Part shown: piece after piece, positions 5,816-36,165 of the stretch
How the letters are laid out: each line of letters begins with the position of its first letter
How positions within the stretch are numbered: position 1 is the first letter of the stretch
NCBI GenBank assembly: GCA_047972845.1
Contig: JBKEBB010000286.1
Coordinates: 1-39,398 of the forward strand
Reading direction: 5' to 3'
Length of the DNA stretch: 39,398 bases
Origin: Bacteroidales bacterium
GTDB taxonomy: Bacteria; Bacteroidota; Bacteroidia; Bacteroidales; JBKEBB01
Translations under genes and position numbers: made by a program
Notes under the pieces: model-generated
Told to the model about the DNA's origin: nothing
The model's input: the letters and a program-made list of their open reading frames with translations, nothing else
Databases searched by the model: none

Positions 5816-6157
5816 TCTCCCATCAATCTCCCATTATCTCCCGACGTGTCCCTATTTTAAAAGGATGTAATTCCCATTATACAGATGTGTATTCATTCAT
5901 TGAAAACAGACCGATCCGTTGGTTCAAAAGGAGCAAACGTTTTGGTAAAACAGACGGCTCCTTTTGTAGCAGAGATACAGACCTTTTCACCAAAAGGTAT
6001 ATACCTTTTTATCACTCCTTCAAACAAGGAGAACAGAAGGGATTCTTCGGTTTGATAATCAAAACAATAGAGATTGATCAATGGAATCTGAGAAGAAGGA
6101 ACGCGATTATAGGGAAAATGTCAAATCAAATTCGTTGCCAAACGATGAAAAGTTGCC

Positions 6158-6165
6158 TATCTTTG
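6158..6165 (+). promoter_or_regulatory. Bacteroidota -7 promoter box (TAtcTTTG) feeding the cobalamin riboswitch
   Basis: TATCTTTG matches the TAnnTTTG consensus. It lies about 6-8 nt upstream of where the aptamer's first helix begins. The -33 element is only approximate (TTCGTTG at 6131-6137). Confidence 0.55.
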
Positions 6166-6167
6166 CA

Positions 6168-6365
6168 ACTGCATAGGTTTCGGAGTGCATGGCTTTGCAC
6201 AATCCGACTAAGAGGGAACCGGGTGTAAATCCCGGACAGTTCCCGCTGCTGTAAGTTCCGGTTCTGATACAACAGAACCATTCGGCTGAACACTCTTTTG
6301 CCACTGACAATCGTTGTCGGGAAGGCGTTCAGTCGGGAATAAGTCAGAAGACCTGCCTGTGTGCG
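6168..6365 (+). promoter_or_regulatory. Cobalamin (AdoCbl-type) riboswitch aptamer
   Basis: Conserved blocks read directly: AGAGGGAACCGGGTGTAAATCCCGGACAGTTCCCGCTGCTGTAAG (6211-6254); GCCACTG...GGGAAGGCG (about 6300-6327); B12 box AAGTCAGAAGACCTGCC (6341-6357). A cobalamin adenosyltransferase gene lies downstream. Boundaries are approximate. Confidence 0.9.
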
Positions 6366-6532
6366 ACAACATTCAACGGCTTTCGGGTAAAGAGCCTACG
6401 AAAAGAGTTTCGGGTTGCTACACAGCTTCTACACCTCCTCAAACGACCTTCGTTATTCTTGTCCCCATGCGTTTTGCGTTGAACGTTGTCAACTGCATTT
6501 AGATACTATTCAACACTAAAAACAAAACAATT

Positions 6533-7114
6533 ATGGAAAACAAGAAGATCAATTTGCGATTTGGAGCAATCTCATGTATGATTCTATTGGCAGCACTGAG
6601 CCGACTGATTCCCCACCCCATCAATTTCGCCCCGATAAGCGGAATCGCCCTGTTTGGAGCGGCCTTTTACGGTAAAAAATATTGGGCCTTCATCATCCCG
6701 ATTGTCTCCATGTGGATCAGCGATCTGATCATCAACAACGTGGTGTACGCGGAGCTGTTCGATGGATTTGTATGGTTCTACTCAGGTTCTCTCTTTACCT
6801 ATGCGGCGTTTGTAGCAATTGCCATTCTTGGAATGAATGCACTGAAAAGAGTAACGGTAAGCCGGGTGGTAGCCTCCGCTATGTCGGCCTCCATTTTGTT
6901 TTTCGCACTGTCGAACTTCGGGGTGTGGCTTTCATCGGGAATGTATCCCCACACATGGAACGGGCTGGCAACCTGCTATGCCGCAGGCCTCCCATTCCTT
7001 AAAAACACAGTAGCGGGCGATTTGGTATATAGCGCACTCCTGTTTGGTGCATTCGTTTGGGGAGAGAGCCGATTTCCGGCTCTTCGCCCGGTCTCACAAT
7101 CAATAGCATCGTAA
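6533..7114 (+). CDS. Small polytopic membrane protein, DUF6580-like putative (corrinoid-related) transport protein
   Basis: 193 aa with about 5-6 hydrophobic helices. The N-terminal segment LSRLIPHPINFAPISGIALFGAAFY resembles what I recall of the DUF6580 family. It is the first gene after the B12 riboswitch. The family assignment is from memory, not from a search. Confidence 0.6.
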   Translation: MENKKINLRFGAISCMILLAALSRLIPHPINFAPISGIALFGAAFYGKKYWAFIIPIVSMWISDLIINNVVYAELFDGFVWFYSGSLFTYAAFVAIAILGMNALKRVTVSRVVASAMSASILFFALSNFGVWLSSGMYPHTWNGLATCYAAGLPFLKNTVAGDLVYSALLFGAFVWGESRFPALRPVSQSIAS

Positions 7115-7629
7115 TGAACGGATTTGTGCATGTCTATACCGGCGATGGAAAGGGTAAGACAACCGCGGCTTTCGGATTAGCACTACGTGCGGCCGGAGCG
7201 GGAAAGCAGGTGTATATTGCCCAATTTGTGAAAAGTATGATCTACTCGGAGGTTAAAACCGTAGATCAATTTCTGCCCAACATCACGGTAAAGCAATACG
7301 GATTGAATTGCTTTTTGATAAACACTCCCGACAACAACGACATGGAAGCCGCTCGAAAGGGATTGGAAGAGGTGAAACAAATGGTATCCTCGGGAGAGTA
7401 TGACATGGTCGTGCTTGACGAAGCTACCATTGCCGTGTTTTACAATCTGATCTCGTCCACCGAACTGATCGATACAATCAAAGGGAGAAATCCCCGAACA
7501 GAAATTGTGGTAACGGGACGATACGCGTCATCGGATCTGATTGAGATAGCCGATCTGGTAACCGAAATGAAAGAGGTAAAGCACTACTACCAGAAAGGCA
7601 TCGAATCGAGGGTCGGCATTGAATGCTAA
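7114..7629 (+). CDS. cobO: Cob(I)yrinic acid a,c-diamide / cob(I)alamin adenosyltransferase
   Basis: The N-terminus VHVYTGDGKGKTTAAFGLALRAAGAG is the CobO/BtuR P-loop. The ATG at 7114 overlaps the upstream TAA by 1 nt (TAATG). The ORF-track start at 7057 would overlap the preceding gene by 58 nt. Confidence 0.85.
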   Translation: MNGFVHVYTGDGKGKTTAAFGLALRAAGAGKQVYIAQFVKSMIYSEVKTVDQFLPNITVKQYGLNCFLINTPDNNDMEAARKGLEEVKQMVSSGEYDMVVLDEATIAVFYNLISSTELIDTIKGRNPRTEIVVTGRYASSDLIEIADLVTEMKEVKHYYQKGIESRVGIEC

Positions 7630-7648
7630 CATCAAAAGTAAAACTATT

Positions 7649-8353
7649 ATGCGCAAAAAAGCGGTAATGAACAGGAGCGGAGGAAAAGACTCTGCTTTGG
7701 CACTGTATAAAGTAATGCAAGGCGAAGAATATGAGGTAGTCTCCCTGCTTACGACAGTAAACAGAGAGACCCTCCGTTCGTCCATGCACGGCATACCGAT
7801 AGGGCTGCTTCAGGCACAAGCCAGAAGCATCGGAATTCCTATTCAGGAGGCATACCTCGACCCATCGGGAGAGATGAGCGGATACAACGAAGCGATGCGT
7901 GAAGCGGTGGAGTACTTTCAGTCAATCGGGGTGACCCACTTCATTTTCGGCGACATATTCCTGCATGACGTACGCTCCTACCGTGAGGCACATTTGAATC
8001 CCTATGGCATCGAAGTGGTAGAACCGCTGTGGGACAAAACATCGGCAGAGGTGATGGAGGAGTTTCTGCAATCGGGACTACAGACAGTAGTGGTCAGTAC
8101 GATGGCAGACAAGCTGGACGAAACATTTATAGGACAACCGATTGATCGATCGTTTGTGGAACGAATTCCCGAAGGGGTAGATATGTGTGGCGAAAACGGA
8201 GAGTATCATACGTTCTGCTTCGACGGTCCGCTGTTTCGTTCTCCCGTCCGTTTCTCGATGGATGAAACGCCCATGCGGGTGTCGCACGACGTAACATTGG
8301 ACACAGGGGAGGTTCGCGCCTATCACTACTGGTATGGCAAACTCAAGAGGTGA
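7649..8353 (+). CDS. PP-loop ATP pyrophosphatase of the MJ0570 / Dph6 (diphthine-ammonia ligase-like) family; function unknown in bacteria
   Basis: SGGKDS PP-loop at the N-terminus (MRKKAVMNRSGGKDSALAL). Family-typical FGDI, EPLW and CGENGEYHTFCFDGPLF blocks. The start is 19 nt after the cobO stop. Confidence 0.75.
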   Translation: MRKKAVMNRSGGKDSALALYKVMQGEEYEVVSLLTTVNRETLRSSMHGIPIGLLQAQARSIGIPIQEAYLDPSGEMSGYNEAMREAVEYFQSIGVTHFIFGDIFLHDVRSYREAHLNPYGIEVVEPLWDKTSAEVMEEFLQSGLQTVVVSTMADKLDETFIGQPIDRSFVERIPEGVDMCGENGEYHTFCFDGPLFRSPVRFSMDETPMRVSHDVTLDTGEVRAYHYWYGKLKR

Positions 8354-8387
8354 TCTGATTGAGTAATTGGCCGCACCAACCCATTCG

Positions 8388-8438
8388 AAGAGAAGGGAGG
8401 ATTTCATCGTTCTGAAGATCCGCCCTTCTCTTTTTTCT
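8388..8438 (+). terminator. Rho-independent terminator closing the riboswitch-controlled unit
   Basis: AAGAGAAGGGAGG (8388-8400) pairs with CCGCCCTTCTCTT (8420-8432), giving 12 bp with one mismatch. It runs into a TTTTTT tract. Confidence 0.7.
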
Positions 8439-8645
8439 TCCAAGATTCTTCCTTTCAATTCATTACCGACAGTCAAAACAGAGTATTCGTAAGTCATACA
8501 TGACTTGGCTGATCTGAATCATTGTACCCATAATCATCCTGATAAAGAGCAAGAAAAGAGATAAACCATCATTTCTTTTTGAACGATAAAGAGTTAAGCA
8601 GCTCAAAAAAGTTGCATATAAGGATGTAATCTCAACAAAATCTTC

Positions 8646-8676: not shown

Positions 8677-8994
8677 ATGGAGAATAAATTTCTTGAACTC
8701 GAAGAGAAGATCGTACGGATGCTCAAAATGGTCTATGACCCTGAGATTCCTGTTAATGTGTACGATCTGGGATTGATCTATAAGATAGATGCAGACGATC
8801 CGAAACATATACGTATCGAAATGACTCTGACAGCCCCCAACTGTCCGGCGGCCGACTTTATCGTTGAAGACGTGCGCATGAAGATAGAGGGTATCGAAGG
8901 GGTGGAAAGCGTAGATATACAACTGGTGTTCGAGCCCGAATGGCATAGAGATATGATGACCGAAGAGGCCAAATTGGAATTGGGATTTCTCTGA
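8677..8994 (+). CDS. DUF59 / SufT-like metal-sulfur cluster assembly factor
   Basis: 105 aa. YDPEIPVNVYDLGLIY and TLTAPNCPAADFI are typical of the DUF59 (PaaD-like) family. Confidence 0.8.
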   Translation: MENKFLELEEKIVRMLKMVYDPEIPVNVYDLGLIYKIDADDPKHIRIEMTLTAPNCPAADFIVEDVRMKIEGIEGVESVDIQLVFEPEWHRDMMTEEAKLELGFL

Positions 8995-36090: not shown

Positions 36091-36095
36091 CACTG

Positions 36096-36165
36096 TGTTT
36101 TTCATGGTATTAGATTTAAGGTTAAGGGAGATTGGTTGTCGTGAGACAACCTTTCTTTATTTTAT
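36096..36165 (+). ncRNA. Candidate small RNA (about 65-70 nt) defined only by a promoter box and a terminator
   Basis: The predicted TSS lies about 6-8 nt after the -7 box. The transcript would end at the GGTTGTC-GTGA-GACAACC hairpin plus TTTCTTTATTTT. No homology to any RNA family I recognise. Confidence 0.3.
36134..36165 (+). terminator. Rho-independent terminator
   Basis: 7-bp GC-containing stem GGTTGTC/GACAACC with a GTGA tetraloop. It can be extended by AGA/TCT across a 2x2 internal loop. TTTCTTTATTTT follows. Confidence 0.65.

Follow-up and report, generated by a model that had tools for sequence, protein, structure and literature searches.

A cobalamin riboswitch-led operon of an uncultured Bacteroidales groups a candidate corrinoid transporter of the DUF6580 family with CobO and a DUF71-type PP-loop ATPase

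In Bacteroides thetaiotaomicron, corrinoids are scavenged through the btu loci, cobamide-riboswitch-controlled operons that encode BtuB/G/H/J/K and BtuFCD, and in this organism each cobamide riboswitch is described as coming with a promoter of its own (2026 review, PMC13616437). A different solution is found in alpha-, beta- and gammaproteobacteria, where the small six-helix solitary S-component BtuM binds cobalamin in the base-off form via Cys80 in loop 3, and where btuM co-localises in most hosts with btuR, an arrangement interpreted by the authors in terms of metabolic trapping (Rempel et al. 2018, PMC6072759). In addition, the PP-loop protein family DUF71/COG2102 has been split into Dph6 and a 'DUF71-B12' subgroup, for which a role in B12 salvage was predicted (de Crécy-Lagard et al. 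2012, PMC3541065). Here we analyse a locus that can be compared with each of these systems, at positions 6158-8438 (+ strand) of a 39,398-nucleotide stretch of DNA, called here the window, from an uncultured gut-type Bacteroidales (GenBank assembly GCA_047972845.1, contig JBKEBB010000286.1). The locus is most likely one transcription unit, led by a cobalamin riboswitch, and consists of the following features:

6158-6165, + strand: putative Bacteroidetes-type -7 promoter box TATCTTTG (motif match to TAnnTTTG)
6158-6374, + strand: cobalamin riboswitch aptamer, RF00174 (cmscan, 107.3 bits against a gathering threshold of 31.5, E = 4e-26, model positions 1-189)
6375-6532, + strand: expression platform or leader, with an A-rich stretch before the ATG and no intrinsic terminator
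6533-7114, + strand: DUF6580 membrane protein, 193 aa (PF20221, 180 bits)
7114-7629, + strand: CobO/BtuR ATP:cob(I)alamin adenosyltransferase, 171 aa (PF02572, 211 bits)
7649-8353, + strand: PP-loop ATP pyrophosphatase of the DUF71 / 'DUF71-B12' type, 234 aa (PF01902, Diphthami_syn_2, 128 bits)
8387-8438, + strand: intrinsic terminator hairpin with a T-run (fold of -25.3 kcal/mol)

Like the btu loci of B. thetaiotaomicron, which serve scavenging, this is presumably a cobamide-riboswitch-controlled operon of the Bacteroidales, but it has neither the outer-membrane and surface components nor BtuFCD, and instead encodes a putative inner-membrane carrier and two cytoplasmic enzymes; the review of the B. 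thetaiotaomicron systems mentions neither DUF6580 nor the PP-loop enzyme (PMC13616437). By analogy, the DUF6580-CobO pair may follow the import-then-trap logic of BtuM-BtuR, with a small six-helix fold of the solitary S-component type encoded beside a corrinoid adenosyltransferase. It differs from that pair in its occurrence in Bacteroidota and in the addition of a third gene, that of the PP-loop enzyme. With considerable confidence, we consider 6158-8438 a B12-regulated corrinoid unit.

The reading that we favour, with a probability of about 0.6, is that of a three-step corrinoid import-and-processing module. We infer that cobamide binding to the 5' riboswitch would switch the unit off in cobamide-replete cells, and that DUF6580, as a solitary S-component-type protein, would mediate a BtuM-like passage of corrinoids over the inner membrane. 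CobO would adenosylate the imported cob(I)rrinoid, which would thereby be trapped in the cell, and the adenosylcobalamin made in this step, being the probable ligand of the riboswitch, would close a feedback loop. The PP-loop enzyme would convert ATP to AMP and pyrophosphate and so activate an oxygen function on imported corrinoids that are incomplete or damaged. The likeliest target is a side-chain carboxylate, whose subsequent amidation or re-ligation would yield a usable cobamide; substrate and product of this last step, as given here, are speculative.

The riboswitch, the identities of the three families and the packing of the operon are established. The aptamer is the sole riboswitch that Rfam identifies in the window, and all its core motifs (GGGAACCGGGTGTAAATCCC, CCCGCTGCTGTAA, GCCACTG...GGGAAGGC and AAGTCAGAAGACCTGCC) were found in the sequence; the B12 box AAGTCAGAAGACCTGCC lies inside it at 6342-6358, and the B12 box AGUCAGAAGACCUGCC is present in the full-length RF00174 match. 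The DUF6580 protein covers profile positions 2-162 of the 162 of PF20221 (gathering threshold 27), and CobO contains the P-loop GDGKGKTT and scores above the NCBIfam cut-offs of both TIGR00708 (barely, 168.5 versus 167.75) and PRK05986 (203.4 versus 185). As read from the sequence, the DUF6580 stop and the CobO start share one nucleotide (TAATG, with TAA at 7112-7114 and ATG at 7114-7116), and 19 nt (7630-7648) separate CobO from the PP-loop gene. The terminator hairpin spans 8387-8433 and is followed by TTTTTT; its z-score is -3.33, and its stability was equalled by 2 of 200 shuffled sequences. A preliminary description of this DNA had named the cobalamin aptamer with its motifs, a TAtcTTTG promoter box, three packed genes (DUF6580-like, CobO and Dph6-like) with exactly this overlap and this gap, and a strong terminator at 8388-8438, and had seen in them one B12 riboswitch-led unit whose gene content fits corrinoid uptake or salvage, all of which was borne out.

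Of the 14 TAnnTTTG boxes on the + strand of the whole window, TATCTTTG at 6158 alone falls within 6000-8450, and a TAnnTTTG box is found at the start of the riboswitch model in 42 of 63 riboswitches of related loci. A single box that recurs at the 5' edges of riboswitches supports a promoter directly before the P1 helix and speaks against an internal promoter, and no + strand TAnnTTTG box that could serve the PP-loop gene was found within the operon. TATCTTTG would thus be the promoter of the unit, as judged from this motif.

The ATG follows the Rfam end of the aptamer by 158 nt and the B12 box by 177 nt, close to the 170 nt estimated before, and we found no terminator-like site in this leader (6375-6532), the fold of which is no more stable than that of shuffled sequences (minimum free energy (MFE) z = -1.36). 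For want of a terminator the preliminary description had left the regulatory mechanism open; the absence is real, but it is not an anomaly. The same layout is seen in about 20 homologous riboswitch-to-DUF6580 leaders, in which the B12 box lies 61-220 nt from the start codon and which together contain only one weak terminator-like hairpin, and in B. thetaiotaomicron the cobamide riboswitches repress translation, terminators being hard to predict in Bacteroides (PMC13616437). Since the homologous leaders and the published account agree, a leader without terminator is the norm for this class of riboswitch, and by analogy control probably acts at translation initiation and not via an intrinsic terminator.

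Two further elements were noted in the leader. The 5' strand of P1, CAACTGCAT (6166-6174), has a 9-nt copy at 6490-6498, about 35 nt before the start codon; by a rough estimate about 0.3 such copies are expected by chance, so that the repeat is within chance. In the MFE fold the 3' strand of P1 (6356-6367) forms an alternative helix with 6415-6428, but two substitutions in a 91%-identical relative do not support this pairing. Both could be parts of the expression platform.

The PP-loop protein is related to Dph6 and distinct from it. Like the characterised Dph6 proteins (PF0828 of Pyrococcus furiosus, PDB 3rjz, and yeast Dph6), it has a PP-loop ATP site and presumably an adenylation chemistry, and it aligns with PF0828 over about 190 residues (E = 5e-19). 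In contrast, it falls below the cut-off of the Dph6 equivalog TIGR03679 (96.7 bits versus 197.3), and where PF0828 has GEGGEFETF the window protein has GENGEYHTF, so that ENGEYH replaces EGGEFE and a His stands in place of the catalytic Glu188. The protein thus lacks the Dph6 motif EGGE/DxE188 and carries the signature ENGE(F/Y)H, which replaces that motif in the DUF71-B12 subgroup (PMC3541065). Its scores are also well below the cut-offs of the models for archaeal second copies (PAB0415_fam, 64.5 versus 250; TTX_0299, 56.6 versus 250). As bacteria have neither diphthamide nor EF-2, the substrate must differ from that of Dph6.

The window protein resembles the DUF71-B12 subgroup in fold family, in having SGGKDS intact and the ENGE(F/Y)H signature, in its clustering with B12 genes and in the predicted role in B12 salvage. 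The 2012 study stressed BtuFCD and CbiB as neighbours (B12 transporter genes adjoin 75 of its 102 members, cbiB 18 of the 102), whereas the partners in the window are the riboswitch, DUF6580 and CobO (PMC3541065). None of the Bacteroidales genomes then available had a homologue, the carriers among the Bacteroidetes listed in its Table S1 being Niastella, Rhodothermus, Runella, Salinibacter, Spirosoma, Zobellia and Zunongwangia (PMC3541065). As late as 2016, the subgroup's status was given by the same group as 'function unknown, B12 salvage', and our literature search found no experimental paper on DUF71-B12 after 2012. The B12 link of this family is therefore already published, and the locus is a good but not a new example of it. 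The preliminary description was wrong in stating that no B12 role had been described for this ATPase family, and its term 'orphan' holds only in that the reaction had no assignment, the role in B12 salvage having been predicted.

The Mrp/NUBPL housekeeping gene of the window is 74-79% identical to genes from Bacteroidales metagenome-assembled genomes (MAGs; UBA4116, Tannerellaceae, Parabacteroides, Barnesiella). The riboswitch-DUF6580-CobO-PP-loop unit is kept, with wider synteny, in the 91%-identical relative (L081/L082), and a 65% relative (L246) has the order DUF4988/DUF5074 protein-DUF6580-CobO-62-aa open reading frame-PP-loop-DUF2284. The trio DUF6580-CobO-PP-loop is uncommon; we met it in the window, L081/L082 and L246/L247 only.

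The conservation of these associations was surveyed in 80 species-representative loci of the PP-loop gene (51-64% identity, 8-kb flanks; Bacteroidota and 12 Acinetobacter) and in 80 species-representative loci of DUF6580, 70 of which are evaluable for riboswitch position. As control we used 80 loci (1.16 Mb) that surround the Mrp gene in similar taxa and contain no riboswitch, CobO, DUF6580 or PP-loop gene. Riboswitches of the loci were located by nhmmer and a motif scan, which agreed with Rfam on 8 PP-loop riboswitch loci, and an Rfam check of 11 nhmmer-negative DUF6580 loci found a riboswitch in none of them.

The statistical linkage of the PP-loop gene to B12 features is also established, and the survey supports a link that is real but partial. 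CobO lies within 8 kb in 13/80 loci and a cobalamin riboswitch in 9/80, and one or the other is present in 19/80 loci versus none of the 80 controls (Fisher p ~1e-6, an optimistic value, as are the other survey p-values, because the loci in each survey are phylogenetically non-independent, which weakens our case). CobO is directly downstream on the same strand in six loci (L043 and the Bacteroides/Phocaeicola-type L063-L066 and L071) and mostly divergent upstream elsewhere, and BtuF-BtuC-BtuD-type genes are found upstream of the PP-loop gene in L019 and, by cluster membership, in L040. Cultured species with a linked locus include Phocaeicola massiliensis DSM 17679 (L063, PP-loop-CobO), Bacteroides bouchesdurhonensis (L065) and Alistipes timonensis (L078). 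DUF6580 was found within 8 kb of the PP-loop gene in none of the 80 species-level PP-loop loci. A refutation test proposed in advance in the preliminary description, a lack of enriched linkage of PF01902 homologues to cobO or to riboswitches, thus did not refute its reading. The linkage is not general, however, as 61 of the 80 loci lack any B12 feature nearby.

The best argument that the PP-loop gene belongs to corrinoid metabolism in these organisms is its recurrence in different gene orders and phyla, in at least six distinct riboswitch-led operons. Co-directional riboswitch-led runs with the PP-loop gene are found in L004 and L015. A Flavobacteriaceae MAG (L148:375-8432) has the order riboswitch-TonB-dependent receptor-Por-tail protein-DUF5074-DUF6580-PP-loop-CobT-CobS-CobC-type phosphatase, with genes that overlap or abut and with no BtuFCD, CobU or CbiB in the stretch examined; this is a complete-looking operon, in which the PP-loop gene is placed between import and nucleotide-loop assembly. 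An Acidobacteria MAG (L156) has riboswitch-DUF6580-PP-loop, L248 has riboswitch-TonB receptor-DUF5074-PP-loop-DUF2284-Por-tail protein, and L083-85 have riboswitch-NrdD-NrdG-DUF6580-MarC-PP-loop (L083:1-4849, L084:1817-6705), NrdD-NrdG being the B12-independent ribonucleotide reductase.

The same survey also provides what can be said for an alternative in which the function of the PP-loop ATPase lies outside corrinoid metabolism, such as the amidation or activation of another small molecule or of a macromolecule, and the gene is merely co-transcribed here, its B12 neighbours resulting from gene-order drift in Bacteroidales. Several observations favour it and weigh against our reading. The 61 species-level loci without a riboswitch or CobO within 8 kb are about three quarters of the total, the neighbours of the gene span some 270 Pfam families, a 63% relative (L250) has a stand-alone PP-loop gene, and in most of the riboswitch-bearing loci the riboswitch points away from the gene. 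In a neighbour-joining (NJ) tree, the B12-linked loci fall in gut Bacteroidales clades, in the clade of the window and in a distant branch (L132/L148/L156), and a large clade of Flavobacteriia, Chitinophagia and Acinetobacter contains none despite its ENGE(Y/F)H; all Acinetobacter loci and nearly all those of Flavobacteriia and Chitinophagia are without B12 context. In the same tree, calculated without the 2012 reference sequences, the window protein belongs to a clade whose sister clade includes Acinetobacter. Its nearest relatives include Acinetobacter proteins, which are outside the B12-linked set of the 2012 study, where the Acinetobacter-related DUF71 members (cluster 3, as distinct from cluster 2) are reported as not B12-linked (PMC3541065). 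The signature does not separate linked from unlinked members: SGGKDS is found in 84 of 86 relatives, the window protein included, and ENGE(Y/F)H in 83 of 86 sequences, including Acinetobacter and Flavobacteriia members that have no B12 link, and because these unlinked members keep it, ENGE(Y/F)H marks a bacterial clade and not B12 linkage. We therefore rejected ENGEYH as diagnostic of such a linkage.

This alternative has to contend with the 19 linked loci against none among the controls, with riboswitch-led operons of at least six designs, independent of one another and spread over Bacteroidales, Flavobacteriaceae and Acidobacteria, with the tight packing of the PP-loop gene between DUF6580 and CobT-CobS-CobC in L148, and with the 75/102 members found beside B12 transporter genes in the independent survey of 2012 (PMC3541065). 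We consider it unlikely, and a role of the PP-loop enzyme in the corrinoid metabolism of this organism quite probable.

The Acinetobacter gene (56-57% identical) has a context of its own, composed of two paralogous proteins of about 220 aa without Pfam match, a short-chain dehydrogenase, the PP-loop gene, and divergent YbjQ-like and efflux genes (L041, L042, L050, L054, L056, L059-L061, L067, L069, L072 and L076). If the family were strictly B12-related, this context would be unexplained.

For the DUF6580 protein, NCBIfam has no matching model, NCBI annotates it as 'putative transport protein', and our literature search found no paper mentioning DUF6580. An AlphaFold (AF2) model built from 31 sequences has six helices (pLDDT 86.5, pTM 0.82), and in a Foldseek search against the PDB the only coherent matches are S-components of energy-coupling factor (ECF) transporters, namely ThiT, BtuM, RibU and PanT, with the highest TM-scores (0.59/0.63, probability 1.0) for BtuM (8ovv). 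The fold similarity is thus established at the level of the model. The invariant or nearly invariant residues are H28, N31, F32, P34, W81, F82, Y138, P139, G144 and C148, among them a C148 that is invariant and an H28, in loop 1, that is nearly so. In the model H28, N31/F32, W81/F82, Y138/P139 and C148 are in loops and helix ends, and all of the conserved residues would be located on the periplasmic face, given the K/R residues of the N-terminus and of loops 46-48 and 104-108 (positive-inside rule). S-components bind their substrate at the periplasmic face.

The genomic context of DUF6580 points in the same direction. A same-strand cobalamin riboswitch is present within 500 nt upstream in 20 loci, and 12 more have DUF6580 in a co-directional run behind a riboswitch, giving 32 of the 70 evaluable loci (46%); a riboswitch anywhere in the locus was found in 40/80 cases versus 0/80 controls (p = 2.5e-15). 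The genes downstream include those for DUF4465, DUF5074, TonB-dependent receptors, BtuF-type binding proteins (4 loci), CobT (2), NrdD, the PP-loop protein (3) and DUF2284 (2), of which DUF4465 is a validated B12-binding domain (PMC13398666, PMC8941943); an identification of DUF5074 as BtuG was not adopted, since the B12-protein papers that we retrieved are silent on DUF5074. The CobO start overlaps the DUF6580 stop in the window, where the pair is taken to be translationally coupled, in L081 and in L246, and CobO adjoins DUF6580 in L101 and L107. The membrane passage by DUF6580 suggested in the preliminary description is therefore strengthened, both by the 46% of riboswitch-led loci and by the modelled S-component fold closest to BtuM, and we regard DUF6580, with its ECF S-component-like predicted fold, as a candidate for a solitary carrier of corrinoids.

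Some of these data count against a corrinoid as substrate. The Foldseek E-values are weak (0.1-0.2), and phmmer and the 31-sequence profile found no match to DUF6580 in the PDB at E <= 10, BtuM entries included, in line with a lack of detectable sequence similarity to BtuM. Compared at the level of loops and helices, the conserved Cys has another position than in BtuM, whose essential cobalt-ligating Cys80 is in loop 3: loop 3 of DUF6580 (residues 72-85) has no Cys, and C148 lies at the predicted periplasmic start of helix 6. Because the cysteine sits elsewhere, we class DUF6580 as working like BtuM, and not as a member of the BtuM family. In addition, about half of the DUF6580 loci (in Balneolaceae, Saprospiraceae and other groups) lack a riboswitch and have epimerase, short-chain dehydrogenase and small Cys-rich genes as neighbours, a hint that some members of the family have another context, unrelated to B12; with such different neighbours in the riboswitch-free half, specificity may differ across the family. 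Over all loci, the same-strand downstream genes include Cys_rich_CWC (11), epimerases (8), DUF5522 (7) and short-chain dehydrogenases (7), a count not split by riboswitch status. Riboswitch-free loci include L117, L121, L123, L135, L141, L154, L155 and L165, with Balneolaceae, Saprospiraceae and Chitinophagales among the hosts.

DUF6580 might accordingly carry another B12-related solute, for example a lower-ligand base, alpha-ribazole (as for CblT) or cobalt, or have a role other than transport. S-component folds serve many vitamins and precursors, as the presence of ThiT, RibU and PanT among the top matches illustrates, and this possibility would also suit the BtuF-type proteins (4) or CobT (2) encoded in some DUF6580 loci, the half of the family that is not riboswitch-linked and the lack of conservation of the BtuM cysteine position. 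We nevertheless think it rather improbable, as L148, L246 and the window have no other inner-membrane transporter beside the outer-membrane or surface B12 proteins and CobO, BtuM has the best TM-score, and the pairing with CobO copies that of btuM with btuR. That DUF6580 carries a corrinoid is, in our view, probable.

Less can be said about the chemistry of the PP-loop enzyme. Re-amidation of corrinoid carboxylic acids, as suggested in the preliminary description, is plausible for a PP-loop enzyme, but the known amidations of the corrin ring (CobB/CbiA, CobQ/CbiP) are carried out by a different class of enzymes, which speaks against it, and we propose carboxylate adenylation and amidation specifically only as a tentative assignment. 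The hypothesis put forward in 2012 was a different one, that the enzyme is a functional equivalent of the bacterial CbiZ, by which the nucleotide loop of pseudo-B12-type cobamides would be removed or exchanged with no amidation of a carboxylate. It agrees with the strict anti-correlation of DUF71-B12 with bacterial CbiZ and its co-occurrence with CbiB (PMC3541065), with the layout of L148, where the PP-loop gene immediately precedes CobT, CobS and CobC, the genes for nucleotide-loop assembly, and with the many cobamide analogues that gut Bacteroidales meet. On the other hand, a reviewer of that study remarked that amidohydrolases are very seldom recruited from PP-loop amidoligase families (PMC3541065), and the intact ATP-binding motif argues for an ATP-consuming ligation or activation, so that we judge a CbiZ-like function distinctly unlikely.

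The PP-loop survey further revealed that DUF2284, a Cys-rich 'predicted metal-binding protein' with the motifs CxxC...C and CxxCxxxxC...C, is the commonest same-strand neighbour of the PP-loop gene (17/80 loci versus 0/80 controls), often overlapping or adjacent, and 10 of these 17 loci also have a riboswitch or CobO. Loci with DUF2284 are L005, L009, L011-L016, L021, L026, L029, L036, L038, L058, L070, L077, L080 and L246-L249 (for example L246:3509-4096 and L248:7716-8309). DUF2284 gave no match to solved structures, and the literature on it is almost nil. It may be a partner of the PP-loop enzyme. An alternative in which the enzyme normally pairs with DUF2284, as a possible Fe-S or Zn partner, in a chemistry other than simple amidation, such as a cluster-dependent substitution at an adenylated position like that of the PP-loop tRNA thiolases, has in its favour this neighbourhood and the Cys motifs, but is very unlikely, since most PP-loop loci have no DUF2284 and none is encoded in the 39-kb window, whose copy would have to use a partner encoded elsewhere.

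Outside the operon, a FeS_assembly_P (DUF59-type) gene of 105 aa (8677-8994, + strand) is located directly 3' of the operon terminator, a position that is kept in the 91% relative L081. Distant from the operon, at 36095-36161 (+ strand), the window encodes a small RNA of the Bacteroidetes FopS family (RF04319, 75.2 bits; gathering threshold 56).

The fitness of gut Bacteroidales depends to a large extent on how they acquire cobamides, and in current models the inner-membrane step ends at BtuFCD, with no cytoplasmic processing enzyme (PMC13616437). Our survey extends the published B12 link of DUF71 proteins to the Bacteroidales, an order without any homologue among the genomes of the 2012 study, shows that this link is absent from large clades, and points to DUF2284 as a likely partner. 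These results sharpen an existing prediction and overturn nothing, their added value being the suggestion of a BtuM-like function for DUF6580 and the DUF2284 lead. A broader reading, which we put forward with some hesitation and at somewhat less than even odds, is that DUF6580 proteins are a new and widespread group of solitary S-component-type inner-membrane corrinoid transporters of Bacteroidota and some other phyla, an alternative to BtuFCD, and that they would operate with CobO and with a PP-loop ATPase whose ATP-dependent repair or remodelling of corrinoids would be a new reaction, possibly together with DUF2284. If this is true, the PP-loop ATPase would be the first PP-loop enzyme in B12 metabolism. 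The locus and its relatives offer compact, riboswitch-defined test beds both for the DUF71-B12 reaction and for DUF6580 as a BtuM-like carrier.

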